64,000 nt of DNA from Raillietiella orientalis. Taxonomy: Eukaryota. The stretch is from NCBI GenBank assembly GCA_036172245.1, contig JAYWIR010000005.1, forward strand, positions 6,076,001 to 6,140,000. Direction: 5' to 3'. Under the pieces are notes generated by a model, which saw only the letters and a list, made by a program, of their open reading frames with translations, made no database searches and was not told the origin of the DNA. A program made the translations under genes and the position numbers. Positions 3,801-60,300 of the stretch are shown here, in pieces; position 1 is the first letter of the stretch, and each line of letters begins with the position of its first letter.

Positions 3801-6800
3801 CCTCAGAGGCGCAGGCGGCCCTGCAGGGGAGGGGCGGCTCAGAAGTGGCATCGGGTCGGGCGGGCCATGGGTGGCAGAGGCTGCGGGGCCTAGATGCCCA
3901 GACAGAAGAGCACGATAGCAGAGCGGCGGTCGCTCGGAGACGAAGCTCGGGGGCACCGAGCACTGAGGGGAAAGGGGGGAGATGAACGATGAGGACCAGG
4001 TCGCCGGGGTTCCTGGTCTCCTCCGGCGTTGCAAGGGGAGGCAGGAGCGGTCGCAAAGAACATCCCCTCCCTGTCCGATAGCAACACCGAGGAAGGACCT
4101 GCCCCAAAGAGACAGCCCTGTCGCGTGGCGGCGGAGATCCTCTGGGCGACCCCTGACCACGCACGTCGAAAGCGGGGAGGGTGGAAGGTAGACTCTGCAA
4201 AAAGACCCCGCGTCAGGTGAAAAAATCCTTGCCCTCGAGGCATTGTCGCTCGTCCTGTGCCAGCTCGTTGTCCCGGAAACCCCTCTCGAGGAAGAGCTTC
4301 CTCCCTCCCGACCGCGCTACCGCGGGAGTTCACGCTCCGCAGTCCTCTCCCCTTGCTCTTGAACGGAGTTCTGCCGGTCCCACCAGGGGGCTTGAGGAAA
4401 ACTCAAGCCATCCGTCCTCCGCGGGAAGCGTCATCTCCGGGTTGGTTCCTCCTCCATCTGCTGCTTCTCTTCCGGAAGCGTGGCGTCTTCCCGGACGCCT
4501 CACCATCACCCAGGAGCAGCAGCACCGGAGGGAACATCAGAAGGAGACATCCTCTTCCTCCTGGAAGCCAACGAGAGGGCGGAGCCGGGCGCTGCTACGC
4601 CGACGGCGGAGGAACTGCTGTCGGCGAGGACCTCTTCTGCCCCAGGGGGAGGAATAAGGAAGGGCACGACCTGCAAATCGGCGCGAGCGCTTCCAGGCGA
4701 TTCAACCCTCCCAGAGTCAGGAGGGAGGGAGCCGCAAGGGGAGGGAGAGGAAGAATTCCCGGCGGGCGAAGGCACGCGAGAGCGCATCCGCGGACGGAGG
4801 TGAGGGTGAAGAAGGGCCGTCCACGTGACCCTACCCTCCACTTCCCTCCGAACGTCCGCAGCCCGCGTCGCCCCATCTATCCATTGCTGGCTCGGGAGGA
4901 CGGGGCACTTCCAGAGACCTTCTGGGTGAGATCGCCTTCCCGGTTTAAAAGGCAGCGACTGCTTCTTCAGCCTTTGGGATAAAGGTGCCTGGCTGTCCGG
5001 GACGGCGGGGATCGTGGAAGAGGACGTCGTCACATGACGCGCCCCGATACGCGGCAGCACCAGCAGCGATCATTCGGCCAACGCGTACCTGCAACGAAGA
5101 ACGGTGCGAGAAGAACAATCGTCGGCATTCTTGTAGCAGGTGAGCACCAATTTTTTTGTGTGTGTTGTTGCTGCTGCTGCTTACCCTGTGGTTGAAGGGC
5201 GGTGCAGCCAAAGAATCGGAACCAGGTCAGTCTGGAGATCTGCCTGAAGAAGATGAGGAAGGGATGTTTGCTCGCCGAAGAGAAGCCCGCAAGAAGGAAC
5301 GGACAAGGGAGGCGAACGAGGCAGGGTAAGTGTGGCCACGGGCTGGCTGGCGGCGGGCTCCTAGGGTCCGCGGGGATGGGTCATCTGCGGCCGAGAACTG
5401 GAGGTAGGAGCCGCACCTCTTCCTCCCAAGAGATGCGAGGGTCGCGACAGCACTACAGCCTAAATCTGAACCTCCGTTGAGACTCCAAGCAAGTGTTGGT
5501 CTAGCTGTACACAGATCCGGGCACGTGTGCACGTATGTGTGCGTGCAAGTACCCATAAATACACACACGGAATCCACAAGTTTTTATTAGGATACTTAAA
5601 CACTATTGTTAAAGTAATAGACTGCAGTAAAATCTCACTCGGAGTCCGCCGTTGGGACGATGCTTCAGGGTACATTTTAAATACGATGTTTGTTCTTGCT
5701 TCCGATTCCTGATATGTATGAATTTCGGAGGGAACACTTTGTTCTAGGTCAGCTAGAACAAGGTGTGTTCCCTGGAAGCATTGGACTGAAGTGCTTATCT
5801 CAACTAGCAATAATCCCATCTCCACTTTCGTCCTCGGTTAGAATAGCCGCCCGTGGGCAAAGCTCATGATCTGTGCTTTCATTTTAATTTTGGTTCCTGA
5901 ATGAATCAGCGAGGCAGATTTTCACAGTTGCATTTCGGTCCGTGCATTGTGAATGTCCGAAAGAATGAAGATCATTAGGAAGAATTTAGAATCCCAAATC
6001 TCAGAAAAACCATGCTTAGCCGGCGCCGCCACAAGCTATGCCCAAAAGCGTGTACAAAAGAAAAGATGGAAAACGCTTGACTGTAGACAAAACTGTAGGT
6101 ATCAGGAATTTAGTAGTCAGCATTTAGAATACTTCGGTACATACGAGCGAGAACTTCTGCTCGATTTAAAATGGTGGCGCATGCGGGCATTTTAAGTTGT
6201 GCTTTTCTTTTGAACCTCCAAGTTGAGAACCCTGGCGCGGACACCCCCGGCTGTGCGCATTGTTGCGCAGCTTGGTGTGCGCCTAGGATACGAGCCATGA
6301 CAACCAAGCTTCAAGGTGCAACCGAGTTGAATGTGCGGATGCACTGCAGAAGTTGTGGCGATGACTGTATTCTGATAGAGACCACGCAGATTTTGTTAAT
6401 GAAAATACGTTGTACGTCATGAACATGTAGTGTGGCTGAATACAAGTGGTGCACGCAACCTTCAAGTACGTTTGTGTATGTGATGCGTGTATGTAGGTGT
6501 ACATATAGGCTACTTACGTAGACATGCAAGTATACGAATTCATGCCTGTGAAGCAAAAAATACTCATAGGCACAAGACACACAAGACGTGCCTATAAGCA
6601 CATCATGTGTGTGTACTTATCTAAACATGGCATGTACGAAATGGCATGAGCTAGCATACATGTATGAAAACAAAAGGCGTCTCTGACAGAAGGCTGCCAT
6701 ATTCTAAGAAACTGCCGTGAGGCGACACGAGTTTTATGCGAGCTATAAGAGCTTTTGAGAACACGCTATGCACACAAGTGTACACTGCAGGAAGCTGTCT

Positions 6801-14000: not shown

Positions 14001-16684
14001 CATCTGCAATCCGCCACGCATGCGAAGCCCTCCCTTTGTTAAAGACAACTGAGATCAATCCTGCAATAGGAAGATTATGGGCTTCGAAGCGAATGGTCAT
14101 ACTACTACTACTACTCCTTCCTGCACAGAAGGGAATCGTGATCCACCACCGAATGGCCGAAAAGCTAATGAGAATTTGATGCGGGCAAAGAAAAAGGAAA
14201 GCAACTGACAAATCAAGTTGTAGCCATTGGGTGTCAGCACACTTATTAGTTTCTGCCTTTCCTCTTTTGCTTTGAATTTGCGAATGTTTTCGTGTGTCGA
14301 GTGTCCCAAACTTCGTGTCTTGCAGGCGGTCGCATTTCCACTTTGATTTTTGGACTGAGGTCCCCCAAAGGTGCAGTGGGATAGGTCGACAAGGGGTTTC
14401 GTGGAATACCAAGTGCGTTTTCAGACAAATGACGCAAGTGCATCTTTTTGGGGAAGGGGGGGTCTTTTTGGGTTGTTGTAGACTCTAGACGGCTTTCTTC
14501 ATTCTGTGACTCCCGAATTCCAAGTGTCCTTTCCGTGGTGTCTTCCTCTTGCAGTAGGCTTTCAATACATTGACGTTGCCCTCTCACGTGTTCTCAACTG
14601 CAAGAAGCTCGTCAGACTTTGAGGTGTTATTTATTTTTACTCGGAGCATCACGAAGTACACGCGTTAATGGAACTTGGGGCAGTTGTTAGCATCATCTAA
14701 ATGCTAAGGTAAACACCACTTTCACATCCTGAACACGTACATTCAGTTGGTGCTTGCATCAGTGCAGTTATAAGCTTTGGACTAAGTGGTATACGAAAGC
14801 AAGGGCAGTTTAGGGGTACGAGGAATGTAGCAGGTTTTTGGTTTTATTTTCATAACTGATTCAGCCCATACAAAAATTCAATCGACCCAACAAAGATTTT
14901 TCAAATATGTTTTCCTTACGGCTGTGCATTCATTTTTTTAATTATTAGTATCATTATTGTTTGTATACTACTATTTGAAAGAAGTTCATAAAGTTGAGAG
15001 AATGAAAAAAATCAATCCCAACAACAGTTTTCCAATACTCATTTGTAACTGAGCCATCTTTCTGTTCTTTCTGTATGGAGTTTTTTTCATTCTTTTGTTG
15101 ATGCACACTTAAATGTATACATTCATGTTCCTGGGAAGTTTCTTAATTCGTTTCAGTGAAGTTCTAAAAGAGAATAAGCACTCCTTTCAGTATGAATTAC
15201 ACATAGAATCTTATCTATCTTGTGCTTTAACGGCTGCTCACATCATCTAAAGTGCCGTGGTATCTACAGGGGTGTTTTTTTTTCTCGCAGGTGCTTGGGT
15301 TCAATGAAATCCACAAAGTTGAAAATGATACTTTGCTCACAGATATAATTTTTTAGTTTATCCCTCTCTGGAGAAAAGTTTGAAGTTGCAATTTGTGCAA
15401 TTACTGAAGCAGCAGTTTAATTTTTCATCATCATCATCATGATGAGAATATTTGGAGAAAGGGCTTTCAAATGTATTGATATCCAGCAAATATGAACGAC
15501 TTAGTCCTGGTCAGTGAATAATTAACATCAGGAATCAATAAATAACAGATGTAGACAGTGGTTAGGCAACAAATTTGTTACTTCATTAGAAAACAAGGCA
15601 CTCTAAGACCAAAGCATCCAAAAGAATGGGATTTTTAAAATGGCATTGGTATGCTACTATAAAGGAAAAATAAACATATCAGTTGAAACAATTCAAAATT
15701 GTGAAATCATTAATATTGTAAGCGTAAATAATTTTTGCCAGTAATATACATGGTTGTAAAAATATATTTTTTATATTTCAGAAATTAAAAATTCCTGAAA
15801 TATAAAAAATCATCATTCAATTTTGTATGTATGCATAGCATACGTATATATGTATGAATTTAATTCCAGAAACTCTCCTCTTATCCAGTAATGGATTTTC
15901 TTATGATAGGAAAACAGACATAGTATGATGAGCAACATTATATTCCAGAATTATGTCTTCTTGGACTGTTTTAAAAGACAACCATTATTGTTGCATTTGG
16001 TTCCCATTTTTAAAATTAAGACAAACTTTATCAGAGAATTTTATTTTTTTTGGCTTTTCAAACATGTGAAAGTACAAAAATGGGAGGCAACAACAAGGAA
16101 TTTAATCCCAAAAGGTTTCTGCATATACATATATAAACGTATATGCATAATAATGTGAATATTCAGTTAGGAGGTACTAGAAGCAACTGTACCCTCAGGT
16201 TTCATGAATATGGACTTTTCATGTGATTGGCAGCAGAGTTTCATTTTTAACTTGTATAAATCAAGAAGGCATTAACTGTCAACTGTATAGATGCACTGCA
16301 TGTTTTTCAGTGATTTTATAAAGTAGGATTACAGGTGCAAGTTGAGATGCATGGTTTGGGACTCCATTTGAGAGAAAAAAAACCTGTATTCACACACACA
16401 TGCATATATAACAATAGCATAATGGACATGGTGCGTAATTTGATGACTGCTTGGAAATAGGTCTCAAGCATATTGTTTCATAAACTTGGTAGTAATGTAT
16501 CATGTCCTGCTAGCATGAAGTAAGTTTTGCATTGTCTTTATGCTGAAATTGAGCAGTCTGAACATCGTAAAATGTCATAAATTATTCATGCAATGAAAAC
16601 AAACTCTATAGTATGTATAAGTAGATATACATGAAAATAAATAAATAAGTATATTTCTTTCCACATGGCTATAAGAGTAACTAT

Positions 16685-16804
16685 GCAATACCATCACACA
16701 GAATCCATCATCTACTTTCCACAATGACATGAAGATAGACATCCTTTGATTCCATGCTATTATTGCAGCAGATTTAGGGATCATTTTTCTTTGCTACTAA
16801 ATGA
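16685..16804 (-). pseudogene. Degenerate tandem duplicate of the last Med16 coding exon, lying in or just after its 3'UTR
   Basis: Aligns by eye with 16841-16964 (shared cagaatccatcatc, gacatgaagatag, ttgcagcagatttagg, ttgctact) at roughly 80% identity, with 1-, 2- and 3-nt indels that break the frame. Confidence 0.88.
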
Positions 16805-16846
16805 ATACATTTGTTTCTATGTTGCTGTAGCATTAAATAAGCAATA

Positions 16847-19532
16847 TCAGCAAACAGAATCCATCATCCACTTTCCAGAACATGGACATGAAGATAGCCA
16901 TTTTTGATCCCATGCTCTTGTTGCAGCAGATTTAGGAGGCATTTTTCGCATTGCTACTGCATGACACCTGCAAATGATAAGTGTAAGATAACACTTTATA
17001 TTTCATACACCTTGAAAATACTTCTACTAAAAAATATTTACAAGCATGATTTAATCCATGCTCACCTGGTGCAAGTTTTGTAGAGTTGTGAATTGCTACC
17101 TAAATACGTATGATGCACTGCATCTTTTAAGGGAGACCTTTCTTTTACTTGGGTTTTAGTATCTCCGTATTCCACCTTACAGAAAGTAATGTAATGATTT
17201 CTTCAGAAAAAAAAAACTTACAAATAAGGGCATGTTGGACAACATGAAAGTTGGCGACAAAACACCCCTAGCAGGGATTGTTACATTCAAATTTGGGACT
17301 AAGACCTGACTAGATAGCAGGCTGCAGTCATCTGAAATTCAATAAACGAGTATCATAGTGTCAAAGTTCAAATCATCAAAAATCTCACCTAACAAGGACT
17401 CATCGAGTGTTTCTCCTGCATGCAGCAATCTAGTTACCAACCGGTATAGGATGGACAATACATCCAGGTTATCTGCTACTTTGAAAAAGATTGGCAGACA
17501 ACTTGCCCTGACTAAACCCCACATGCGAATTAGAATTAACAACTCTCTGAGGGTGGACAACACTTTGACATCTAGGAGAAGTTCACTATGGGGTCCTTTG
17601 TTTGGAAGGGCAGTCAACAGGTAGAGACTGAGATCAGCAACCCACTGAGTGAGTTGCTGCACCGATTGCAGAGTGGTGGGTTCCACTGTGCACTCCATGG
17701 ATAACTTATCTAAGTGAACTACTGCTTTGTCTAGATCGGCCATTCCTTCCATGCCTTTGCTACTTAGAACAGATGTCAATGTGTCAGCTAAATCTTTTTC
17801 CTGATTGATTGTGAGATCTGCTGGTCTCAAAAGGGATTTGCAGAAGGATGCCACACAGTGCAGCATCAGCTGCATATAGCAATCTGTTGCCTGACTGCTG
17901 CCCTGAGCACGCAATAAAATGACCCGAATGGAAAGAAAACGAGAATAATAAAGTTGCTGGGTTATGGCTGGCTGGCGAAAAAACTGTTCTTGCAACCGAA
18001 GTGCTAGGGGCTCAAGCTGTACTGCCTGTGCTGCTGCTAAGACATCCCAGCAATCTGTGCCTGTGACCAAACATTTTTCTAACAGAAGGATCAGCCAGGA
18101 TAAGCTAGCCTGGCTGTCTCCAAGGGGAAGGCCACGAAAAACACATAAGTCGTTATTGGTGCTTAAGCCCACCAGTATGCAACCATTTGGGGTCCACATG
18201 AGTTGCTTCAACGAAAATTGCAGCTTACTTAACTTTCCTTCGCTCCTTTCTATGTTAGGAGTAGGAACTGAAGCAAGCTGCTGCAAAGAGTCTGCTGCTA
18301 AACAGTGAATTCCACCATCCTGACTATAGATGGCTAGCCATGGCAAGCCTGGTACAACATGCAGCAATGGGGATACGAAAGAGCTGGCAGCCTGAAGCTG
18401 CCATGATAGTAAATGCAGGGGTTCTGCTTTTAAAAAGGTCTTGTGCAATGGTACTGACTGCATGTGTAACTGCCACAGTTCTAGTAATCGATCTGAAGCA
18501 TGGCTATAGCTTATGAGGAGCTTCAGGGTGCCCAACTCTTCTTTTGTGGCAAATCTCACACTGTAGATGCACCCTAACCATTACTGCATTAAATGTTGCT
18601 CATTCCTTCTTTCATACCTGGTGCACTATGTTGGGACACTTGCAGGCATGGCATGGCAACAGATGAAAGGTTGATATCAGCTCCTACTTGTATTTTACAA
18701 ATACATATAGGTTCCAGCAAACTTGCTGAACTTAATGCAAGCATCAAAGACCCATCTGATAGGATGAAACGTATTCCTAAGTTGAGAATTCATAGATTAC
18801 CTTGCATGTAGCAATAGTCGGCTTGAGAGAATTTGATCTGAGGGGTTTCCAAGCAACACTGTGTTACTGTGGACTCCACCCCCCACTGCAAAGGTATCAA
18901 TGATACAATTCCTGAAAATCCTAGAGTAAGCAGTCCATCTCCAGCACAACCACCACATATTCTCCAGGTAGGTACAAAAGGCATGCTAACGAATTTGTCT
19001 TGGTACAAACTGCTATCTAATTTATCAGGTACCAGCGTCATCTGAAATGAGAACATTGAATGCTGTTGTTGAAATTTCTCCTTGCCTTATTCCAGGGGTG
19101 AAGCCACATTCCTAAAAGCAACTTTTCTCCTGGCAGACTGGTTTTATGTATACATTCCCAGTTATTCAAAATGAAATCCTGGGCCTGCCATATTTGTGTT
19201 TCTCCAGTAAAAGTCAATATAGCCAGACGAAAACCAGTGAAGTCCCATGAGATATGTGTCACTTTTGGGTGAAAAGATGTTACTTTATATAATTGTCCAG
19301 GAAGATTTAGATCAGTCACATATATGTGACTACCATGAGTTTCAGAGTCTTGAGACTGGATAAGTGGATAGCAAGAAACGAAAGCAACAACATTATGTAC
19401 AGACACATCTAAAACTTTTTTTCCATGACATCCATCCCTGGAAAGCATTTCACAGAAGTTGCCATTTTTCCAAAATTATATATCTCACTGGGTGCTCTGA
19501 TGTTTGCATCCAACTGAATAAAGCAGCTCCAT
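16847..19532 (-). CDS. MED16: Mediator of RNA polymerase II transcription subunit 16 (8 coding exons)
   Basis: Hand-spliced exons 19532-19489, 19437-19086, 19041-18801, 18755-18618, 18573-17389, 17331-17222, 17175-17066, 16967-16847 join in frame. Protein starts MELLYSV..., has a WD-like N-terminus (ISWDFTGFRL, NNWE, WLHP), central LVTGTDCWDVL, LQSVQQLTQWVADL and LRELLILIRMWG motifs, and a C-terminal KTCTRC...AWDQKWLSSCPCSGKW segment, all matching known MED16 motifs. Intron 2 is GC-AG. Confidence 0.95.
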
Positions 19533-19624
19533 TTGAACCAACAGTTCCCTTAGAAAAACCAAAGTTGAAAGAAAACTAATCTTCTACAGGTGGTCTGATG
19601 GCCATCAGATGCCTCCCACCCCCA

Positions 19625-19664
19625 TTTATTCCCTTTCAATCCAAGAACTCTTAAAATTATTTAT

Positions 19665-19665
<1 letters not shown>
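19625..19665 (-). terminator. Candidate Abi polyadenylation signals (AATAAA at 19665-19660 and 19630-19625)
   Basis: Two canonical hexamers immediately downstream of the Abi stop codon on the coding strand. Confidence 0.6.
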
Positions 19666-21870
<2,205 letters not shown>

Positions 21871-22984
21871 AATCGCACTTTCCTTTGACTGTCTGCAGCT
21901 TCCCTCCGACTGTATCAGTTACGGATGCCGAGTCTTCTTCTCGAGTCCCCTTCCAGGATGGCGAGGTTCGTGCAATTTGTCATATCAGCAAACTCTCACA
22001 CGGCACTTCCCGCCGGCTCCCGCCACAAAACACACCAACCACCTCCGGCCTGGATGCGCGCAAGACGGGACACCCCTGCAAGAAGTCGGGAGGGAACACT
22101 TCGCGTTGCCAACGGACCGAAAGCCACGGTTCGCCATAGAGTGTGCTCTTTATTTGGTCAATGATGCGTGCACGAGGTGTTCCACTTGTCGCCGATCAGG
22201 GTGGGCTTCCGACTTTTCGGCTACTTCGACAAGTAGGGTCAGACGACCATGGGGCTGAGAAATCGGCGTTTTCGAACCACCTGCGTCCACGGCCACGGAT
22301 CGCCACATTTCCACGGATGGCTGGCGTACGCATGTCTGGAGCGACCCATCCCGCGGGTGTGCGTAGTCACAAGAAGGTTATCTCCGGCCTTCCAATTACG
22401 CGCGGTCGGTGAGCAGGTGCGTGAACCCCACGCTCTTGCCGAACAGGACAGTGCTGACATGGCAACGGGTTCTGGAAGCCGAGGAAGCGAAAGGCTGCAT
22501 CTGGAAGAGGATGACGCCTCACCCAGCTAAGGAAGGTCATCTCGGGAAAGCAAAGCCGTGTCCATCCGACACTCTTCCTCCAGGACTTTCGAAACGAAAC
22601 AGTTGCCTGAAGTTCTAAAAGTATGTTCTCTCTGCCTCCCCCTCTCTGGGTGTTCGTACACCCTGAGTGCGTGATGCACACACAAACGCACACGCTGAGC
22701 ATTCTGGATTCATTGTTTATGTTGTCATTGGCAGTAGTGTTTATTTAAACACATCTCTCTTTGGCGTACTTCCTGGATGAACACACCACGAAAAACGTTG
22801 TAAATGATGGATGGAAACGCCCATGGATTTTGCCTTCAGATTCACTGACGGAGCTGTGAGGTCGGGAGGAAGTATGAACGAAGATGCGTTTACGCCGTGA
22901 AGATTGAACAAGCTGCTGGGAATCGATGCATTTTTTTTTTTTCTCCCCTTTTCTTCCAAACCCCGAGCACCGGCGCGGCTCTTC

Positions 22985-33625: not shown

Positions 33626-34587
33626 TTCGACGTCCTGCCTGCATCGCAGCAAGTGCTTGGAAAGGGGGAAAACCCCTCGGCGCTCTTTTCCCATCTTGCC
33701 CTGCCCCTCTCCCCCCCCCCCGTTTTTGTTTTTTGTTTTCGTTTGTTTTGCTTGTTAGCTGTTGCGTAGCAGTGCCCGGCATCGACGGACGCCTCAGCAA
33801 GCGCGACACACATGGAGTTTTTTTTTTGTTTTGTTTTTGCAGGCGAAAAATGCTCTCGGGAAAGCCCGGCGAGAGGGGTCTTCGGCGTGCCAATCGGAGC
33901 CGTAGGTGTCTGTCGATTTTTCGGGAGGAGCAGGAAGAGGAGGACCGACCGCAGTGTCTTTCCGAACAAGCTGCGGCTCCGCAGGGATGGAAAGATGCGC
34001 AGTTTCCATTCCGTAGGTGCGCATGATAGATTTGCTTTCAGCGGTATTCCGACGGTGGAACACACACACACGCAGACACCACAAATAAACACCGAGCTGG
34101 ACCGGGACGCAGGTCCGGCGGTTGTAACACGGCCGGAAGTCCTCGCTCTTGGATTTTTTCCTCGTCCGTACGCGCTCCGTCGGATTTTTTTTTTCTTATT
34201 TCTTCTTCTTTCTTCTCCTTCCTCCCCCGCGTTTTCACACAGGCAACTTTCACTCTTGATCAAGAGTATCGAAAAAATCCCGTTTTGCGAAACTGGGGAG
34301 CGCCGTGTTTGGCCTGGGTGGACGGCCGGATATTCCCGGAAGGACTACCGGCGATTCCTCCGCCACCCCTTCCGCCGCCCGGGCGGTTGGCACCTCCGCG
34401 CGGTGCGCGCGTGGGTGGACTGGGGACTTCTGCCGAAAGGAAGAACATAATAGGTAAATAAACGCAGTTGTGGGCTTTGCGCGGCAGCCGGGCGGCGTCG
34501 GGCTGGTGGGTGAGGGAAAAAGTGAGGGGGGGCTGGGGGGAGGGAAGGGAACCGAAAAAACGAAAAAGGAAACAAAATAGGATAGAT

Positions 34588-34977: not shown

Positions 34978-36235
<1,258 letters not shown>

Positions 36236-39200
36236 ATGTCTCATCCCAAGCTGTCCCCGATCTCAGCTAGGCATCTGTATAAAGTCAACTACCCCTTCTG
36301 TGCTACTGTGACAGTAGAACATCATTGACCAGTGCCAGCTCCGTCCTCCGCATAAAGATCTTTGGAATTTTATTGATTTCATGGGACATGGGGATGAATA
36401 TCGGGGGGCCGGGCAGGGAAATGAATAATTTGTAGTGCAGACTTTTAAAAAAAAAAGAAAGAAAGAAAGACTACTGGAGAATAGAGCTCAACAGGAGGCA
36501 GGTAAGGTTTACAGCTCTATGGCCAGCCGCCTCCTCACTTGTGTAGTTCCCAATAACCTGATTCGATGGAAGCACCGCATCGGAAGCTGCATGCATATCA
36601 TAAAAATTAGCTCATACCTGGAAGGCGCATCATTTTAGAGCACGAGAGGGGGGGGGGGGGTGAACCTGGCAAGGGCTGCTCCCTTACGCTGCATTGAAAT
36701 GCGTTGCCGTTTCCTAACACGTTGATGTCAAAGCGATTTCGCGGTGGACGGAGAGCGCCCCGCCGCAGCGCGGGTCGTGAGATCCGAATGTGCAATTTTT
36801 GCGGGCGGCGGCAACCATTAGCAACGACCTGCCGGAAGGCGCGGCGCAGATCCGCGATGGCGCAATAATGAGACGGCGCTCGCATCGCCGGGTTGCAACA
36901 CGAGCGCGCCACCATCATCCTGCCCCACAAACCATGGTTTGTGGGCAGCCGCCGTCAAGGTTACCGGGCCCGTGAAGCCGAGTGCGCGTCTCCGAAGAGG
37001 GACGCCGGGAACTCCGCACGCAGCCCTCGGCCCGCCCGCCCGAGCGAGCGGCGCGAAATCTCCCTCTCGCAATAAAGTAGTAGGTCTTCGGGATAGTTGG
37101 GCCTGCTGCTGCTGCTGCTGCTGCTCAGCCGAGTCGAGTTGGTCCCTACGTGGTTGTAAACAAAACTCGCCCGCGGTGAGTGGTCACGCCCGTCGCGATC
37201 CGTCCGCGCCCCCAACGGGTTGAGGAGGAAGCGCGCTGCTCACCGTTTCTCCTTAAAGAGAGGAAGGAGAAGAAGAAATTCGGACTGAGTACTGAGAATC
37301 TCTCTCGCCCGTCTCCCTTCGAAGTTATTGACACACTGCCCAATGCTGAAGTGCTGACCACTTTTTCACACCGGGAAGTTGGTGTGCGAAAGCCCCACGG
37401 TCAAGGGGGTGGCTGCTCTTCCTGGAGAGAACGTCTGACCTGGCAGCGCTTGCCGGGGGAGGCCATCGACGCGCGTGGCCTTCCTCCTATCCGTTCGGAG
37501 CGAATCCGAAGCCGAGTGTCCCCCTCCATCCCCCCCTCTCCCCTCCCCAAATCGAATAGTTGCTCGGAAAGATTTCACCCTCCCGGTTTATCCGTGCCAT
37601 CGTGGAGCTGGTCGCTCCTTAACGAGGTAGTTAACATCTAATGTTTGGGTTTTGACATCTCTTGCAAAGTTCAAGAACTGCGCTTCAGTCCAACGGAGAA
37701 AGAATCGGGCGTTTCCCTCTACCCAGGAAGTCGTGTTAATGGGTTAATTAATTACTTGAAGGAATATTTCAGACATTTATGACTTTTTTCCTTCTTTCTT
37801 TTTTTTTTGAAAAAGGAAGATACGGATATTGGTTTCCACTACGGGAGAAGGAGCAGCGATGCAAACCAACTGATTCCCCAAAGTGGTGGTTCGTGATGCT
37901 GCAGATGGTGGTGGTACCGTGCGCCACTGGACCCAAAGGCGCTGCTGGAATCTTTGACGAGCTCGATCGGATGCGGAACCTCTTGTTTTCGCGCTGGTGG
38001 GGCGCGTCTCTTCCGTGGGGGCTGCACGCATGCGCATTCGAGGCGTGCATGGGAACGTGTTGTTCCAAAAGTACCACTTTGGGAGGCCGAAAAATTGAAG
38101 GCGGTGTTTTTTTTGTTGCCTTCTCTTCTCTCTCTCTCCCCCTTTCCCTCCCTCCCTCAGACGAAATCCCGTGGGGCATGGCCGCTTCTACACGCGCTTG
38201 CGAACGAGGGGAAGATTTTTGGTTCGGGGCAAATCGGTTTCCCAGATACGAGTTGTGTTGGAGGAAATCGTGTGCATCGCAGGGTCCTCCCCCCTCTCCC
38301 CACCCCTTCTCCCCGCTTTTTGGTCTGTGCGAGAGGTGGCGCCTCTGCAAGAGTGGAGCGTTTTCCCAGGAGACGACAACCCTCCCCAAGCAAATCACAG
38401 AAAGGATCCTCTTTTGGGATGAAAGATACGCTCGCGGTGTATCGCATACTCTGCGACTATCGAAGATTTGGAAGGATCGACCCCCCGCAAATAAACCTTT
38501 TGCTCTTCTGTTGTCACTTAAGTCTCTCAACCGCAGTGTGACTCCATCTGCTTATTTTCTGTTTAGGAAGGGAGCCTCCGGAGCTGTGCAGCCGAGTTTC
38601 TTCCCGTATCCATTATGCACCATTCATTGCTAAACGGATTCAGATATCTCCTTTTTTTAAAAATAAATAAACCACTCTTTATCAGTACGTAAGGGAAAAC
38701 CAAACTGTTTTTTCCGGCCTCGAAATCAGCGTAAATCATCAGTGCCAGTTTTTATTGCTGGGGAAGCATCTATGAAGATGCGTGCAGTTGTGAATCCGGA
38801 GAGTGGCTCGAAGAGGATGAATGAGTTTAACCAGAAAGGCATCGCAGCGAGTGATTTTAACCAGAAAGCACTTTCCCATGCAGCATCTCTCCTGCTATCT
38901 CACGTGCGAGTCCAAAAAAACAAAAAACAAAGCAGGAGCTGGGGGGGGGGGGGAGACGGAGAAAAGGAAAAGAAAGTACACACGCATGTACATACATCGC
39001 ATAAGAGCAGCCTGTCGAATGGCAATTTGCTCAGCGGCTCGCTTCGGGGGAGGCAGCTACGTACTTCCGGTGTTGTGCAGTCAGGTGTCGGGTTTGTGGA
39101 GTTCGTACGAAGCGAAGCGCACCGCCCTCTCCCGTCTGGCCTTGCAAGCTTCCAGGAGAGCCCGGCAGATGGGAGCTCCGAGACGGCTTAGGCCGGCCCC

Positions 39201-51302: not shown

Positions 51303-54300
51303 TCAACGATAGGGAAGGTCCCTTTCGTGACATGGAGACCGACATGCCTCCTTCTGTCCCTCCGCTCTTTTCCCGCTTACGTACTCTTGCACCCTCTGTA
51401 TCTCCTCCAGCTCGCGGTGGGCTTCGGCGGACCTGCAATCCAGCCGCAGGGCCTGATTGGCGGCCTCGCGCGCTTCCTCAAGTTTCTAAAGAGGGGTGGG
51501 GAAGGACAGTAGATCAAGAACCGGTTCCCGGATTGCGACCCGCTCCCGACCCACACTAACGTTCATTTCTCTCTTGCACCGGGACAGAGAGACAAAGAGG
51601 TCGCGCTTCAGCCTCAGGGACTCCTGCCGCAAAGGATCTGCGTCTTCCAGGATGGCGAACTTCTTGAGGGCGTACTGGAAGCGGCAAGCCGCATCCGCTG
51701 GCTGGAGCTTGGTTAGAAGGGTCAGTCCGTCCTCGTGGAGTTTCCGGAGCAGCAGATACCTAGGAATAAGAACCGGTGGTGGCAGGAAGTCACTCTCCCA
51801 CCGGTTTCCCGGCGCCGCAGTTGGCTTACAGAATTTCCGGTTTCCCGGCCGCAGCGGTCCACGTGGTCTGTCCGAGTCTGGCTCCCTTTCGGAGGAAATA
51901 CTTGACGAGGGGGACGTGCCCGAAGGCTATGGATCTGTCCAGGGGTCTCATCCCGTGGACGTCGGTCTTCTCTATCTGCGCTCCTCTTCCGATCAGGAAC
52001 TGGGAGAGAGGCAGGAAAGTTGCTGACCGATACCCCCGCACGGACGTGACCTACCTGCACGATGCCGAAATCTCCCTTGACGATGGCCAGGGACAAGGGA
52101 GTCCTGCCCACCTTATCCACGTGGTCGATGTCCGCTCCCATCTCCACCAGGAACTTGCATACGATCGAGTGACCTCTGAGGCACGCGCAGCCCAAGGCCG
52201 TCAAGCCTTCTCGGTCCTGGTGGTCGAGGTCACTGCCTGCAAAAGACCGAAGCGCTGCCGTCCACGGGGATGGAAAGAAAGGACGCGAGTGGTGCGAGGA
52301 AGGTGGGACAGAGAAGGCTGCCTCCAATGGGCGGAGGAGGCATCCCTGTCTCCCTCCTCGTGACCTTCACTCCTGACCTTTACTGAGCAATGTCTCGACG
52401 ATCCCGATGTGACCTTTTTCTGCGGCGAAAAGCAGCGCGGTTCTGCCCGAAGCATCCGTCTGGTCGACGAGCGCCTCCCATTGCAAGAGCAGCTCCACGA
52501 TCTCCCAGTGACCCTCCCTGGCCGCCAAGACGAGGGCGGGAGACTCGCCTGATGTCACGTCGCAACCGCCGCGCTGGAGCAGGGCCGCACAGATGCGCTG
52601 GCGGCCCGCGCGGGCAGCGCTGCCTAGTGCGGACTCCTCCGACACCACACCGTTGACGTCGACGTCGGTCACGTCCAGCAAGAACTCCACGACCTGGAAA
52701 CGTCGCTCTTCGGAGAACGATCGGCGACGGGGACTCTCCAACCCTCCCGAAGGGGAGAGGAGGAGGGAGGGGGAGAGAAGAGCCAGAATTACCTGAAGGT
52801 GATCGTTAGCCGCCGCCAGGCACAGGCACTGCTGGAGGACGTCACGGAAGAGCCTGGGTCCAGGGGTCCACGGACACGATAGGAGGAAGCTGACGACGGG
52901 GAGGTGGCCCTTGGATGCCGCGTGCACCAGAGAGGAGTGCCCCGTGTCGTCTTCCTCCGCCATGTTTGCCCCGGCCTCCATCAGGAACTTGACCATGTTC
53001 AGGTGCCCAGCCCGGGCCGCCAGGGATAGAGGGGTTGCTCCGCGGTTGCTGCGGAGGTTGACGTTGGCGCCGAACTCCAGCAGGCAGGCCGCCATGTCGA
53101 GGAAGCCTTTAGCGGCGCAGACGTGTAGCAGGGGGGCATCTCTGGCGGTGCAGGCGTCCGGGTCGGCGCCGGAGGCGAGGAGCAGGCGCGACGTCTGGAA
53201 AAAGAGGGAGTAGGTTACGTGACGTAGCGCGCGCGCCTCATACGCCGAGGTCCGGAAACTGTGCGTTTTTCGGGCTCGCCAGGGCGCTGGTGGTGCTCAG
53301 GGACGCCGAAACCAGCCAGAGGGACTGCAGGTCCTCGTCATCTTCGGGATCTTGGTTCCCGCTGAAGACCTTGGCCTGCAGGATGTGATGGGCGAGAAGG
53401 AGCGTCTTGTCCGCTTCCAGGGGAGCCTCCACGCGGCTGAGCCTCAGAGCGATGTAGGCGTGGCCCAGACTGGGGTAGGGAAGAAGACACGACTCACTTC
53501 GCAGGAAGAGGTCTCTGCGCGGGGCGCATCCCTACGCTGCGTCTGCTCCCCCGCGCGACGATGACGGACGGGAAGCAGGGTGGGCTGCCCCGGGCAACTC
53601 CAGTGCCAAGAGGGTCGTCTTCTGTGCTTCCTTCCTAAGGTTGCGGAGGTGCACCCTTCGACAAGAGCGCGGCGGAGGAGCACAGCACGTGGAGCACTGC
53701 GCGGCGGAGCAGACGCATCCGCGCGTGCGTCAATGATCGACTAAAGGAGCAGGGAGAGACCGGACGGAACGGCAGGATCCGACCGTCGAGATTTCAGTCA
53801 CGCGTAGGTCCAAGCGGGTGCTTTTCTCGTGCTCACAGATGCGATCGGCTGGGCTCCCTCGGGAGCGCGAAGGGTAGATGGCAGGCGAGGCGACTTTCCC
53901 GATGCGTTTCCACAGCCTCACCTCGCCACTGCCGCAACCGACCGGTCCCGGTTTCTCTGGCAACGGCGAAAAAAGCCGACGCTCTTTCCTCCCCTTCCGA
54001 GAAGCTGCGCCTCGACTTGCTCGAAGAGCGATCCGAGTTCTTCCAAGCGTCTTGCTCTTCCTTTCCGGGGACGGAGATGGTCTGCGCCCGCATCGTCTCC
54101 GCGCTGTCCCGAGCACGTCCTAGGCTTGCGGCCCGAGGGCGCCACCTTTCCACACCGGAAACGAGTGAACCGCAGAGGGCTCCCTCGACCTTCATCGGAA
54201 AAACTGGGCCTCTTTCCCGGTCAGATCTGAAGGAGGGATGCAAACAAGCCAGCGGGCCGCGAACAAGGAACCCGACCCATCTCTGCATACCTCGAGTTGC

Positions 54301-57300
54301 CAGGCAACATGCATGTCTCCCATCGAGTCCGTTTTTCATTCTGGCTCGCAGGCTGTGTGCAGCTCGAGCTGCTGTGCACTTGCCAGATGCTCATCACACC
54401 CGCGACGCAATGGCGTCGCGGTGTGACACCAGTGGAGCCACCAAGCCCCCCGGACTTCGATTCGCAGGCACCACGAGGACGAGATGTTCCCATATTCCTC
54501 CCGATCTGCTGCGTCCTGCACTGACTGATCTTTGGAAGGTCGTCGCGGAAGGTGGAGGGCGAGGCTGACTGGACTTGCCAGATCGATGAATCTCGAGGGT
54601 TTCCGCCTCTTGGATGAAGAGGCCGTCCGAAACGCGGATGCTGCGAGGGAGTTGGGCGTGAAGACTGGGGCGGCTGCGGCAAGCGGACCGACATGGTGGC
54701 GCAGCGAGGGTACCGTGAGCAGCAGCCAAAGAGGCTAGAGTGGTTCCGGAGCACACGTTCTGCAGAATCATGGACCAGGGAGGACCAACATCTCAAGTCG
54801 ACATTTCGCCCTCGGCAGCCACGCAGTATGTCGGCCGACTCCCGCCAGTAAGTCTTGCCTGTGAGCGACCTCTTTCGGACGACGTTTGCCTCGGAGGGAA
54901 GCGCGCCGGAGGCATCGCGGGATCCCCGTCAAGCATCGGTGGGGAAGAGCACTAGAGGAGGGGACACCGCCGCGCTTTACGTCCCCCCTCTGCTTCTAAG
55001 GACGACGAAGAGGAGGCGAGCAGGGAGGGGAAGAAGAAGAAGCCCGTTCCAGACAAGGAGGCTATAGCCGGACCCGGCGGAAGACATCTACGATGACCGC
55101 GTGCGTTCGGGAAAGCTGCAAGAACGAAGGTCCGCGCGCGGGAGATGTGGGACGCGCCGTCCCTGGGCTGCGCTCCAGAGCGAGATCGATCCTAGAGAAC
55201 GGGGGAAGAGACTCTCTCCTTTCAAATGCTGTGGGTAGCAGCGACGTTCTCACGGAAGAGCTGGTCGGCCTTGGCCACCTCAAGTTTGTGCGCGCAGAGC
55301 GCCTGCCGGACCACGTGGCCAGACACTCCAGGAGGAACGCCGGTCCTTCCGGATGGTCCCCGTTGGCTGGTTCTTGAAACACGCGCTTTCCGCGCACACT
55401 TTTTTTTGTACTGGAACGCTCTTTCCTTGTTCGGTCCTTACCCAGATCTACGGTTCCTGCTTATCTCCCTTTCCCCCTCCTTTTTTTTTTTTTTGCATCA
55501 AAATTCCAGGACATGACCGGAAGCGCCGCGTAGACGAACTGTCGACTCACTAGCCTCCTTCATCCACTCCGTGTCCGGATCTGGAGCTCCCTGCGATTGC
55601 TCATCAGCCGCGGTTGGCGCGAATGCATCGTCTGCAGCAAATCTGACCAAGGCGAGCACCGAGGGATACGAGAGCCTTTTTCGAGGGGGCTGCAGGCCGA
55701 GGTCAGCCGTAAGGGAACGGCGATAGGCGCGCGCTGAACCGCCGGCGTCCTGGCGAAGACCTCGACAAGCGAAGCTGTCAGTGAAAAAAAGGAAGGGTGC
55801 GGGGGAGGAAGGAGACACCCTAACTCTTCCAGGAGGCTTTTCGAGTTTCGGACGATCTTCCCGGCAGCGCTTTCGCCCTTCCCCGTGACCTGCCCGACGC
55901 CCTCGACTGACCGGAATTTCCGGACGCCTCGACTTCCCTTCCCTCCCTTCCGTGCTCTGTTCGAGGCGCCCCCCGCCCAGCGGTCTGCGCGGCAGCCACG
56001 GCCGCACTCGCGGAACCGAAGGATCAGGGAGCTGCGCAGAATCCCGGGGCCTCGAGGCAGAAAAATCTGCAGGCAGCGAACCGTCGCAGCGCTTGAGGAT
56101 GCTGCAGCGACGCGCGCTCACGCGACGGCTCTTCCGATGAATGCGTGGAAGAGTGGATGTTTCTCCAGGACCGGCGGTGGTGGTGCGGGCGGCAGGCAAA
56201 GACGCCATCCAACGACGGAAACAAAAAGGCATGAGGCAAAGGGCGGACTTTGGCAACCCTGAAGGAGGATCGCCCGGACGACTGTATGACGGTTCCATTG
56301 GAGGCAAGAGCGCCGGAGACGTCGAGGGATCCCTGTCTCGCGTCGGCGGGAAAAGCACGGGAGGAGGGGACGCCTCTGCAACCCTCGTTGGGATGGGATG
56401 GAAGGCGCGCTGGGCGGGAGGGAAAAATCCAACCCCAGCCGGGTTGTGCGAGGAGTGAGGGTCTTCCTGCTCGAGCGTGAGTCTCGACGCCCGAAGGCGA
56501 AGCCTTCAGTGCTCCGGGTTTCCCGCGACGTCGAGCCACGGCGGCACGCCTCTTCAGGCGTTCCCGGGCACGGCGCCAGGATCGCCTCGGCCTCCAGGCA
56601 ACGTCTTTCACCGTTCCCTGTAGCCTGCCGCGACTCCCCTCTCTGCTGTGTTCCGCCCCAGGCCCCCCAAGGTCCTTCCCTTCTTCCCGGAACTGCCTAC
56701 CTCCGGACACCCGCGCCACGTTCTTCCTCGAAGCTGCAAACTCATCCGTTGGGAAAAATAGGGAGGAGGAGGAGGAAGGGAGAGACGCGCTCCAGATTGC
56801 TGCAGGGTTGTCGCGGTTCGGGAGGAAGGAATTCTGCCATCTCGTTTCCGGCGCCTCCGCGCATCGACCTCTGGCAGATTACGCCCAGGAGGGATCTTCA
56901 GTGCCACTAAATCCGCCCGGCTGGGAGGGAGTCAACCCGGCGGAAGAGTCTGGAAACACGGGGAAGAGGAGCGGGGGGAGGAGAGGAGGCGCTCCTTCTT
57001 GGCCGCAGCTCGCCGAGAAAACTCGGGGTGCCCGCTTTCGGCGCAGCCGCGGGTCGTTCGGAAGGTGACCATCGACGCCCGCGCCCCAGCCTCCCTGGAT
57101 CAATCGCAAGGCGTCCCGTTCCATCCAGCTCCCCCTGATTTGTTTCGTGGGTGCGTCCGCATCTTTTTCTCTCCCTCCCTCCCCCTAGCTCCCCCCTTCC
57201 TCGTTCTCGCACGGACGGTCAATTTACGCACGCGTTGCCGAACGGAGGCAGCTCGGGATGGGCGTCGGGACCTGCCCGGGGGGAAGAGCCGGCATGGACG

Positions 57301-60300
57301 CGCTCGGCGGCGGATCCCTTGCGGAGCCTTTGCGCAGTCGCCACTTTGGGGGTGGGGGGTGGGGTGGGGGAGGACTCACAGGCAGCATGGCGCAGGCCGG
57401 CCGCCTCAGGAATGCAACCCGGTTGAAGGGCCGAGATTTATGGGTTCGTTTCGCGTTCCGGAGGTGTTGCGCTTGTCGCCAAATAAAGGGCTCATCTGAA
57501 TGTTTCCAGGAGACGATGTTTACTGTCTCTCTCTTCATCCCCCCTTCCCTTTCTCTCTCTGCGCATGCGCGTGTGCGCTTTTTTTTGTTTGGCTGTTTTC
57601 GAAAGTGTTGTGTGCTCCTCTCCAGACGACACCAATGCGGCGACACCCTTCGGCCGAGCTGCGATTCCAAAAGCAAAGAGAGCAAAAAGGAAAGAAACGC
57701 GCCAAGGGATGCAGAGAGGGCGAAATGCGAGCGCGACCGCGTTGCGAAAGTCGGCTCGCCGTGAAACAGCAGCGGCGAGCAGCCCGGAAAGCGCCAAACT
57801 TGGAGAACTTGGCGTTCCCATGCTGAGTGACGGAAAGCCGCAGCTTCCGCCACGGGAAGGAAGGGGGGGGGGGGGGGGGGGAACGCTGCTTCCGTGCCCG
57901 GGCGCCACTTCCGGCGGAGGCGGCATCATTCTCGAGGCCTCCGCGCTCCCGGAAGTGCAAGCGGTCGAAGCGCTTTCGAGCAGCCCGACGCAACAATGCT
58001 CTTTCGCAGCGCGGCTTCCTCAACAATGACTCCATTGTTGAGGCGCGCGCGCTTCCTCGCCGGGAAGCCGCGCTTCGCCAGGGGTCTGTCGACGGCGCTG
58101 TCGAAAAAGCGCTTTCCCGCAGGGCCTGACCACTTTTGCGACCGTCACGGTGTGCTGCTTGAACTGGATCGGAAGCGAGCCCGCAGGCCCCGGGACCGGG
58201 AGATGCCGATGACGTGCGCTGCGCAGTCGTCATCCCTGGGGTGCATAGAAAAGGCCTTCACGCATGACCCTTGCTCGGCTCCAGCGCTCCCAGCCGACCC
58301 GCTGTGCAGCAGAGGACTCGCAGGCTGCAGGGATGGACTGCGATCCTCCCCTTTCGATCCCACTCACGACGTGAAGCTGCTCTCAACCTCGCGCGGTTTG
58401 CCTGCGACGGTACAGGAAGAGCACGTTCCGCGCGCACCCTGGCACGCGTGCGCTGCGATGCGGGCGGCGAGGCCCGAGGAAGCAGCGGCGGACGCTTGGA
58501 CCAGCCGGATGATACGGCGCGGTCCACGCAGGGAGAAGTTTCCCGATCTCCCTCGCGCGCAAGGTGAATGAGGACGGAACGGGGTGAATCTCGACTCCTG
58601 AACGGTGGCGCGTAATCGTCGAGGGCGCTGCCGGCTACCGTCGTCCCGCATCGGCTGCGACACGTGCGCAAGCGACCGAAACGCCTGAGAGAAGCGCAAG
58701 CCCCCCGGGGTGCCCCACTGGGGACGCAGAACGGGGGTGGGCCGATGCGTTCGCTCGCCCAGGCAGTGCGTTTCGCGAGGAGCCACGACTCTGCAGCGGG
58801 CAACTCGCACTTCATCCACTCGAGCGGGCCCCCTCGTGCCACGTGACCCGCTGGCACGCGGATAGTCACGCTGGGCGGCGAAAGATAAAAATCGAAAGTC
58901 GTTCTTCACGGCTTTCCATTCGGGAGCACCTATAGTGCAGACAGGCGCGGCTTGCGCAGATGCCGATAACTGTCAACAGTCGACGGATGGTCCTCAGTGG
59001 GCCGAGAAGTGAGCGGCAGCAGCAGCCGCACCTCGCCTTTTGGCAAAAATGAAAGAAAAAAGGAGAAGGGAGGAGGGGGAGTGAGAGACCGCCGTATCTG
59101 GTTCATCCAGTTGGTGCGTACCGCCTGGTTGGTCGTGTGTGACTCGAAGGGTGCAGGGAAAATGAATGTCTCGGAGGTCCGGTGCAAGTGACTCCGAACG
59201 CGCAAATATGGAAGACATCGGATGCAAATGCCTCCAGATTTTCCGTCCGCTCCCCTTGGCAGCCACGCACGTGCCAAAGCGGCACGAGCGTGGCTGTGCC
59301 AAACCGGCAAATGACGTCAGAGGCTGCTGCGTGCCTGCAACGCCTGGAAGCATCCGTGCGCAGAATCAGCGAAGATGCTGATCGAGAGTGCAGCGATCCG
59401 GGAGCGGACGCACTCGGGAGATGGCGTGGATCTCCACGGTGGATCCGCAGACGGGTCTGTTTGTGCCACCGCGAAACCACTTGGCATGCAGAATGCAATG
59501 ATGATGATAAGACGGCAGGCGTAAATCCATAGGTGCAGCCCCTGGAGCGCAAAAGGGAAGGTCACAAGGTCACGACCGCGGCGAAAGACATCCCAGGCGA
59601 AGGGGGAAAAACGGTGTTGGTGGTTCGGTTTCGGGAGGGAGGAATCCCGGCGGCGCTCCCGCGGCCCCGTCGCGACCAAGCGAAAAGGGACCCTCCCCGG
59701 TCATCCGCCGGTCCGGGCACGAACGTCGATTTGGGCGCATCGCCCGCCACCACGCTGGGAACGGCAGGGAGCGGGGCGCTTGCAGACGAAGGGCGGCCCG
59801 GAGCGAGCAGGAGAAGAGGGACGCGGTGGTGGCGGTTCGGGGAAAGCTATTAGGAGTACGGGAAGGGGGTAGGGTCGAGGAAGGCTCCTCCCGCGGTGAC
59901 AAATAGGAGTGACCAGGTAGGCGAAAGGGGAAACGAGCGCTGCCCGCCGGAGTTGGGCGAAGACACCCGCCGCACGCCACTGCTGGACCAAAACGGCGGC
60001 TCTCCGGCGGAAAGTCGAGGATCCGGTGGCCCGGCAACACGTCTCCTTCCTGCGCTCCGGAACTCGCGGTCCGCAGCGGGGTGAGCGGAAGAGGCGGCAG
60101 CAACGGAAGTTCCCATTCACAGGACCGCCGTCGCGCGGATCTTCCCCGCACAGACGACTGGGGAAGATCGACGTCGTCCGGAAGCCTCGATGCAAAACCT
60201 CCTCGACGCTGAATGATGAGGGAGGAGGAGACTGCTGCGGTCTTCAACAGGTGGAAGCCCAGCTGCCCGGTGAGGGGGGGAGGGCGTGACAACGGCGAAC

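Follow-up and report, generated by a model that had tools for sequence, protein, structure and literature searches.

Abi and Med16, a closely spaced gene pair, as a candidate trans-spliced operon in an animal with the CpG signature of gene-body methylation

Operons have been described in several animal groups, and the spacing of their genes is one of the properties by which they are recognized. In C. elegans, intercistronic distances are mostly 50–200 bp, with a median of 129 bp (excerpt of PMC7668243). In Ciona intestinalis, about 20% of the genes belong to operons, which were called from same-strand gene pairs with a distance of less than 100 bp (excerpt of PMC2760879). In the chaetognath Paraspadella gotoi, 18% of the genes are located in operons, which are enriched for broadly expressed genes; neighbouring genes were counted as an operon if the gaps between them were below 250 bp and one or more of them carried a spliced leader. 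According to the same excerpt, chaetognaths and nematodes have lost gene-body methylation, and this loss has been associated with the emergence of trans-splicing (PMC12460157). Drosophila melanogaster has 159 annotated dicistronic pairs, corresponding to 2.5% of its genes (excerpt of PMC4528330). For copepods and amphipods, Wenzel et al. 2021 state that no operons had been reported (excerpt of PMC7986045), and our literature searches yielded no later report.

Here, we describe a junction between two unrelated housekeeping genes, Abi and Med16, which lie head to tail on the minus strand of a 64-kb stretch of animal DNA (the window) and are separated by only 132 nt from stop codon to ATG (19664–19533). 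The coordinates that an initial annotation had assigned to this junction (Table 1) all proved correct when re-read from the sequence of the minus strand. The upstream gene was confirmed by its encoded domains as a member of the Abl-interactor family, with both the Abi_HHR domain (exon 3, 2.6e-21) and a C-terminal SH3 domain (last exon, SH3_9, 1e-17) being present; in addition, exon 2 matches the N-terminal helix of human ABI2 (1.6e-12). Its exon borders were inferred from frame-preserving GT/GC-AG pairs; two splice sites of this gene model are ambiguous, namely the intron 1 acceptor and the intron 4 donor. The downstream gene was located by tblastn with homologue P0001, and its predicted product was confirmed by domain matches as Mediator subunit 16. 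Both the central bridge domain (Med16_bridge, 9e-53) and the C-terminal domain (Med16_C, 1.1e-5) are present, the protein matches mouse (1.5e-45) and human MED16 (4.7e-44), and a word-indexed search gave one match with 37% identity, which is too distant for a taxonomic placement of the animal; no match to Med16_N was obtained in the domain scan of single Med16 exons. The N-terminus MELLYSV resembles MDHIYTV of homologue P0001, and exons 1 and 2 are joined via a 51-nt GT-AG intron, which argues that the Med16 start codon is real and that the 132-nt gap is no annotation artefact.

Table 1 Features of the Abi–Med16 junction and its surroundings; positions refer to the window
Feature	Position	Strand	Remark
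CpG-intact GC-rich Abi 5' region	21250..22500	-	first exon, start of intron 1, upstream DNA
Abi (Abl-interactor)	21870..19665	-	ATG 21870 to TAA 19667-19665; six inferred exons
Abi inferred exons	21870-21754, 20959-20792, 20745-20598, 20554-20129, 20081-19893, 19828-19665	-	
CpG-depleted AT-rich block	15000..21250		spans both genes and 1.8 kb past the Med16 stop
CpG-free stretch, 760 nt	19380..20139		last two Abi exons, spacer, Med16 exons 1-2
Good candidate donor CAT/GTAAAT	19668-19667	-	overlaps Abi stop; 120 nt to AG 19549
Abi stop TAA	19667-19665	-	read from sequence
First AATAAA	19665-19660	-	overlaps Abi stop codon
Second AATAAA	19630-19625	-	likely Abi poly(A) signal
Weak candidate donor GGG/GTGGGA	19619-19618	-	71-nt interval to AG 19549
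Perfect 16-bp palindrome TCTGATGGCCATCAGA	19609-19594		where Abi cleavage is expected
T-rich tract, 18 T of 28	19579-19552	-	candidate Abi poly(A) downstream element and/or pre-acceptor pyrimidine/U-rich element
Candidate (trans-)splice acceptor AG	19550-19549	-	16 nt before Med16 ATG
Med16 start ATG	19532-19530	-	read from sequence
Med16	19532..16847	-	ATG 19532 to TGA 16849-16847; eight inferred exons; ~765 aa
Med16 inferred exons	19532-19489, 19437-19086, 19041-18801, 18755-18618, 18573-17389, 17331-17222, 17175-17066, 16967-16847	-	

Both genes are embedded in a block with a GC content of 0.38 and a CpG o/e of 0.22, in which the ratios for TpG and CpA are 1.35 and 1.40, respectively; in the flanks, CpG o/e is 0.93–0.95 and TpG and CpA are near 1. 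By this composition, the block carries the signature of germ-line methylation and the flanks are without it. The CpG decay continues unbroken through the Abi–Med16 junction, as 760 nt around it contain no CpG at all, compared to 29.4 expected at an o/e of 1. The 5' region of Abi, with a CpG o/e of 0.8–1.1 in 250-nt bins, is on compositional grounds likely to be the promoter of the unit. In the 400 nt preceding the ATG, there are 32 CpGs at Abi (31.5 expected) and 27 at an ANP32-like gene (23.3 expected), these being the two other CpG-depleted genes in the window, but none at Med16 (13.0 expected), so that Med16 displays no sign of a promoter which is unmethylated in the germ line. These counts agree with the initial annotation, which had noted that the spacer, unlike the DNA upstream of Abi, has no CpG-rich promoter-like sequence. 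Tight spacing and the lack of promoter-like DNA at Med16 suggest that the two genes are probably co-transcribed, and the earlier proposal that Med16 depends on the Abi promoter gains indirect support from the decay footprint.

The CpG counts bear on the alternative that Abi and Med16 are two independent genes overlapping at their ends, with a CpG-poor core promoter of Med16 being located in the spacer or in the last exon or 3'UTR of Abi. We consider this arrangement unlikely. In Ciona, promoters remain free of methylation over a region that begins about 800 bp 5' of the transcription start site (TSS) and reaches 1 kb beyond it, even when they are placed inside a methylated host gene (excerpt of PMC3827831), and if the same rule applied here, an active germ-line promoter of Med16 should have left CpGs. 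The scope of this argument is three genes in one window plus the analogy to Ciona, and a CpG-poor, methylation-tolerant promoter or a promoter used only in the soma would leave an identical footprint. Besides, tight packing of independent genes would not be surprising at a locus where 11 of the 12 inferred introns of Abi and Med16 are just 43–98 nt long, and same-strand gene overlap is common in the Drosophila annotation (excerpt of PMC4528330).

The reading which we prefer, and to which we assign a probability of roughly 0.4, is that the Abi promoter serves a single transcription unit comprising Abi and Med16, in which Med16 receives its 5' end by leader trans-splicing. Transcription would start 5' of Abi, in the CpG-intact region with the likely promoter at about 21.9–22.5 kb, and the polymerase would continue across the 132-nt spacer. 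The Abi message would be cleaved and polyadenylated 3' of the second AATAAA, with the T-rich tract as downstream element, and the uncapped downstream RNA would be turned into a translatable Med16 message by SL trans-splicing, which would supply a short, capped leader originating from another locus. If the leader were joined at AG 19549 or at a nearby AG, the 5'UTR would be composed of the leader plus 16 nt and would contain no upstream ATG. The layout would be that of a spaced, nematode-SL2-like operon. Within this scheme, we infer co-transcription and the site of Abi cleavage with more assurance than the trans-splicing step, which is the weakest link.

The two genes together span 5,024 nt. 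Both AATAAA motifs of this span are located within the 135 nt of stop codon plus spacer, the remaining 4,889 nt contain none, and at least two copies occurred in only 49 of 20,000 shuffled spacers. A genuine Abi poly(A) region within the spacer, as assumed in the initial annotation, is thus supported by a signal density above chance. CA dinucleotides follow the second AATAAA after 14, 25, and 28 nt (19611, 19600, and 19597); Abi is probably cleaved at a CA between 19611 and 19597, which predicts a distance of 48–62 nt from the cleavage site to AG 19549. The T-rich tract further downstream is also above chance, its richness being reached by only 23 of 6,873 windows of the CpG-depleted block. 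For comparison, the 12 cis introns end with 7–15 T in 28 nt, and the value for the spacer is 17. Downstream U/GU-rich elements are, however, expected at any poly(A) site, and the tract therefore does not require trans-splicing as an explanation: the U-rich tract reported previously is present and rare in the block, but it is weaker support for an operon than had been stated. The spacer contains no copy of TAYYTT, the Ur motif of nematodes.

The Abi poly(A) site alone would explain the T-rich tract also in the case of an independent Med16 promoter. On the other hand, the Abi poly(A) signals and the tract, which ends 2 nt before AG 19549, occupy all of the spacer except for 19 nt in front of the Med16 ATG, so that Abi polymerases would presumably run over a promoter located there; a TSS past the Abi cleavage site would leave Med16 with a 5'UTR of less than about 80 nt, either with or without an intron from 19619 to 19549. 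Two ATGs (19625 and 19605), which open ORFs of only 6 and 9 codons, are present in the spacer 5' of AG 19549, whereas none is found between this AG and the Med16 start. Any TSS upstream of 19605 would include one or both of them in the leader, which is a further argument against an independent promoter.

The same signals are relevant for a dicistronic mRNA of the Drosophila type that carries both ORFs and from which Med16 would be translated by internal entry or re-initiation. The Drosophila pairs likewise consist of two unrelated same-strand ORFs that are closely spaced and share one promoter (excerpt of PMC4528330), and the short gap and the missing promoter footprint at Med16 are in accord with such a message, for which the number of annotated Drosophila cases provides precedent. 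Whereas the Drosophila dicistronics are processed mRNAs with both ORFs, the Abi–Med16 transcript would have to bypass two consensus AATAAA signals that are found between the ORFs and nowhere else in the two genes. Moreover, the first ORF has a length of about 400 codons, the two upstream ATGs are unfavourable for re-initiation, and the spacer has an unremarkable fold (z −1.25) without a hint of a structured entry site; since 21 of 200 shuffles folded equally well, a structured RNA element in the spacer was rejected altogether. We regard the dicistronic mRNA as quite improbable.

The palindrome in the spacer is a perfect 16-bp palindrome as described before. It is unlikely for the spacer taken by itself, as only 32 of 20,000 spacer shuffles contained a palindrome of this kind. 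The 64 kb, however, contain six such palindromes (1.3 in shuffles), one of them within the Med16 coding sequence, and we do not count the palindrome among the features beyond chance. The idea that it is a promoter or insulator motif recurring in the window was rejected: window-wide searches with the full 16-mer (up to 3 mismatches) and with its 10-nt core (up to 1 mismatch) returned only the palindrome itself, and the half-site gave four matches with 2.5 expected and did not recur at gene starts.

For the evaluation of splice sites, matrices were built from the 12 inferred introns, and the sites were compared with 412 AGs and 388 GTs. AG 19549, which has an A at position −3, scored 2.8 bits, i.e. 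under the median of the true sites and at the 87th percentile of the AGs. As the spacer holds nine AGs, of which AG 19650 outscores AG 19549, an acceptor of this quality is expected by chance. As support for an operon, the "orphan" acceptor of the initial annotation is thus weaker than had been stated, and candidate cis donors that could pair with AG 19549 are available at 19668 and 19619. An acceptor and a palindrome that are no better than chance fit with an independent promoter of Med16. The donor at 19619, which the initial annotation had proposed as a weak donor 71 nt from the AG, is indeed weak: with 1.3 bits (69th percentile of the GTs) it ranks lower than all 12 true donors, and this argues against an independently transcribed Med16 with an intron in its 5'UTR.

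The donor at 19668 is better, as its score of 5.6 bits (94th percentile of the GTs) is within the range of the true donors. It forms the basis for a further alternative, in which the Abi transcript is cis-spliced to AG 19549, either from this donor or from a shared untranslated leader exon. Splicing from 19668 would remove the Abi stop codon, and the joined frame is open and reaches the ATG of Med16 with five additional codons in between, so that an in-frame Abi–Med16 read-through protein could be formed, which would be a minor or accidental product. Such a frame match would arise by chance roughly once in four cases, and with 120 nt the intron would exceed all but one of the 12 inferred introns in length. 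From Abi exon 1 the frame would not match, and no upstream Abi leader exon was identified. Abi–Med16 fusion models were not encountered among the relatives scanned from other organisms: neither Abi_HHR nor SH3 was detected in any of seven Med16 relatives scanned, which had been picked from the 150 listed for their long length or a shifted N-terminal match, together with the top match. Taken on this evidence, cis-splicing to Med16 appears very improbable.

Among the systems described at the outset, the proposed trans-spliced Abi–Med16 unit resembles the SL2-type operons of C. elegans, with which it shares unrelated same-strand housekeeping genes and a short spacer that holds the poly(A) signal of the first gene. 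The T-rich tract, situated past the predicted poly(A) site and ahead of a candidate 3' splice site close to the Med16 ATG, would correspond in position to the U-rich stretch of these operons. In contrast to the C. elegans operons, it lacks the Ur motif and is known from DNA alone, and its host genome exhibits gene-body CpG decay, which is not known from nematodes such as C. elegans. The predicted distance from cleavage site to acceptor falls at the low end of the C. elegans range (excerpt of PMC7668243). Ciona intestinalis combines, as the present host would, mosaic gene-body methylation with SL-resolved operons. The genes of Ciona operons, however, abut with zero intergenic DNA according to the excerpt of PMC2760879, in contrast to the gap of roughly 50–60 nt between cleavage site and acceptor predicted by the Abi–Med16 signals; the earlier statement that tunicate operons are defined by spacers of about 100 nt is hence wrong for Ciona. 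From the chaetognath Paraspadella gotoi, the Abi–Med16 block differs by its decay footprint of gene-body methylation. With respect to the spliced leader itself, neither an SL RNA gene nor an Rfam SL family was detected in the 64-kb window, either at the gathering score or at E values up to 1; no Rfam family at all matched at the gathering score, and the five weak matches at E up to 1 include no SL. Among the windows of other genomes compared, there were no look-alikes of the present stretch or of Med16 exon 5.

If the proposed unit is real and one of many in its genome, operons would have arisen independently in a lineage for which none is in print, and polycistronic transcription would have been invented by the host on its own, as by nematodes, tunicates, chaetognaths, and a few other groups. 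The host would have done so while keeping gene-body methylation and proteins that are still vertebrate-like, as illustrated by the match of Med16 to mouse MED16. That Abi–Med16 is a true polycistronic unit resolved by SL trans-splicing in such a slowly evolving, methylating animal is a tentative and somewhat doubtful proposition, and the junction alone is a modest, unproven example. A positive outcome would also imply that the DNA sequence suffices for mapping operons, via the missing CpG-intact patch at downstream genes: under mosaic methylation, a downstream gene without such a patch at its start would be one without a germ-line promoter, a test which could be run across a whole genome ahead of any work on RNA.

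The window was also scanned for other genes. Among the ORFs of 110–199 aa, 134 of 182 were scanned, namely those up to 52,023 except for three inside Abi and Med16, and a single one was assigned to a family (LRR). There are 65 ORFs of at least 200 aa, 64 of which were included in the scan, the Med16 ORF being scanned separately; families were found for four of the 64, all of which derive from one TANC-like gene. The word-indexed search gave two matches to vertebrate TANC1 with 32–34% identity, again too distant for placing the animal.

The upstream gene of the pair is an Abl-interactor (Abi) gene, with matches to Abi_HHR on exon 3 (2.6e-21), to SH3 on the last exon (1e-17) and to human ABI2 on exon 2 (1.6e-12), and the downstream gene encodes Mediator subunit 16 (Med16_bridge 9e-53; Med16_C 1.1e-5; mouse MED16 1.5e-45). 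Both are sequence-only models, the exon borders of which were derived from frame-preserving GT/GC-AG pairs and a tblastn alignment with a single homologue (P0001). Eleven of the 12 introns placed in this way are 43-98 nt long (ten of them 43-64 nt) and Abi intron 1 has 794 nt; Med16 intron 2 (19042-19085, minus) is an apparent 44-nt GC-AG intron (AAG/GCAAGG). The Med16 start is credible because the N-terminal residues MELLYSV are similar to MDHIYTV of P0001 and because a clean 51-nt intron links exon 1 to exon 2, and the short gap between the genes is therefore taken as real and not as a start mis-call.

Features of the Abi-Med16 junction, in window coordinates
Feature	Position	Strand	Remark
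Abi gene	ATG 21870	minus	6 inferred exons
Abi stop TAA	19667-19665	minus	end of SH3-encoding last exon
AATAAA, first	19665-19660	minus	
AATAAA, second	19630-19625	minus	
GT, candidate donor	19619	minus	
Perfect palindrome	19609-19594		
T-rich tract	19579-19552	minus	
Candidate acceptor AG	19550-19549	minus	16 nt ahead of Med16 ATG
Med16 start ATG	19532-19530	minus	132 nt beyond Abi stop
Med16 gene	stop 16849-16847	minus	8 inferred exons

Base composition changes in a strongly mosaic fashion along the window. Flanking DNA is 56-62% GC as a whole (at most 71% in single 1-kb windows), with a CpG observed/expected ratio (o/e) of 0.93-0.95 and no TpG or CpA excess. Two AT-rich islands with a CpG o/e of 0.22, at 15000-21250 and 35000-36600, both coincide with housekeeping genes, the second covering an ANP32-like gene; the first has 38% GC, TpG 1.35 and CpA 1.40, the pattern that decay leaves where gene bodies carry cytosine methylation in the germ line. 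The ANP32-like acidic leucine-rich-repeat gene (34978-36100, plus; LRR_4 1.5e-10, acidic tail), named from reading the translation and not from a family match, has its ATG (34978) exactly at the border of CpG-intact DNA. Such DNA extends to the start codon at both Abi and the ANP32-like gene, where the 400 nt ahead of the ATG contain 32 and 27 CpG (31.5 and 23.3 expected at o/e 1); the same interval ahead of Med16 contains none (13.0 expected), and CpG is absent between 19379 and 20140. In Ciona, which also has mosaic methylation, promoters and intergenic DNA are described as unmethylated, and a promoter inserted in a methylated host gene as keeping around it an unmethylated zone that begins ~800 bp before the start site and ends 1 kb after it (PMC3827831). 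Because of this analogy and the missing CpG, Med16 would appear to have had no common-type promoter active in the germ line, and its 5' end seems to behave like the interior of a transcription unit starting at Abi, both statements being drawn from three genes in one window. The dependence of Med16 on the Abi promoter, as proposed in the initial annotation, thus gains partial support of a new and indirect kind, whereas the trans-splicing step is only plausible. The value of the locus lies partly in the CpG-footprint test that it suggests and partly in the genome-wide pattern to which Abi-Med16 may belong.

Read on the minus strand, all spacer features listed in the initial annotation lie where it had placed them. 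The poly(A) signals exceed chance: over the 5,024 nt that the two genes span, the sense strand has two AATAAA, both of them in the 135 nt of stop and spacer and none in the remaining 4,889 nt, and only 49 of 20,000 shuffled spacers contain two. CA dinucleotides follow 14, 25 and 28 nt past the second AATAAA. The richness of the T-tract (18 T of 28), reached in 23 of 6,873 block windows, also exceeds chance; per 28 nt, 17 T are counted in the spacer, more than any of the 12 cis introns has at its 3' end (7-15). The RNA fold of the spacer is no better than that of shuffles (z -1.25). The palindrome is improbable for the spacer taken by itself (32 of 20,000 shuffled spacers have one of this kind), but it adds little weight: the window holds six perfect 16-bp palindromes, two homopolymer types included (1.3 in local shuffles). 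No other place of interest in the window repeats the spacer palindrome or a part of it. Three further non-trivial examples lie at 19315-19330, 34252-34267 and 36927-36942, one of them within Med16 exon 2.

The 3'-end signals of Abi fill the spacer to 19 nt short of the Med16 ATG, and polymerases transcribing Abi must therefore enter Med16. This read-through and the missing CpG footprint speak against a CpG-poor promoter of Med16's own overlapping the Abi 3' end, the ordinary alternative for a compact genome; a start above 19605 would moreover entail two upstream ATGs, and the donor at 19619, suggested earlier for a 5'UTR intron, scores below all 12 true donors. We rank such a promoter second among the routes, not far behind leader trans-splicing. 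A dicistronic mRNA carrying Abi and Med16, for which part of one source gives a precedent at 159 Drosophila loci (PMC4528330), is improbable and would need both AATAAA to be passed over.

Among the four routes considered, leader trans-splicing at AG 19549 or a neighbouring AG is the best fit to the layout, and we tentatively assign it a probability of about 0.4. Along the order poly(A) signal, cleavage site, U-rich stretch and acceptor, a capped leader joined at this or an adjacent AG would give a translatable Med16 message; no ATG lies between AG 19549 and the start codon. Predicted at 48-62 nt, the distance from cleavage to acceptor lies near the lower limit of the values given for C. elegans (PMC7668243). 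With a matrix built from 12 inferred acceptors (leave-one-out scores -5.2 to 11.0), AG 19549 reaches 2.8 bits, which is below the median of true sites and below one of the eight remaining spacer AGs; the orphan acceptor described initially is thus in place, but at the 87th percentile among 412 AGs its strength is not beyond chance. The same AG could be reached by cis-splicing from the Abi transcript, as a good donor (CAT/GTAAAT, 94th percentile) overlaps the Abi stop and its use would delete this stop and leave the frame open into Med16. By chance alone the frames would agree in roughly one case in four, and Abi domains occur in none of seven scanned Med16 relatives (taken from 150 listed); we regard this route as improbable. 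With trans-splicing as the preferred reading, the locus is a candidate spaced spliced-leader (SL)-type operon. Copepods and amphipods are known to use SL trans-splicing, and a passage of PMC7986045 states operons there as unreported; a full-text literature search found no later report of arthropod operons.

In P0008, a predicted 1,079-aa protein of another organism, a complete Med16 is linked to an RNA methyltransferase domain of the SPOUT type (Methyltrn_RNA_3, 3.6e-102). Either the two are genuinely fused, or the gene model has run together two same-strand genes that, here too, stand very close to each other, with Med16 as the second. Past the Med16 stop, the AT-rich, CpG-depleted block continues for 1.8 kb (15000-16846) without a recognisable gene, with the first AATAAA at 16045, and may for these reasons represent an extended 3'UTR or read-through, or contain a third gene that escaped recognition. 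The final ~105 nt of the Med16 coding sequence are repeated in tandem, in decayed form, about 50 nt past the stop (16685-16800, minus; 89% column identity, frame-breaking indels). A TANC-like gene (51700-63100, minus) with NPHP3_N, AAA_lid_TANC1 (2.5e-26), HTH_TANC1 and ankyrin repeats has long open exons in GC-rich DNA that is not CpG-depleted; its identity to vertebrate TANC1 is only 32-34%, and the closest Med16 and TANC homologues found share only 32-39%. At 5701-5864 (minus), a weak full-length U4 snRNA-like match scores 32.9 bits (gathering score 46; E 0.0011).
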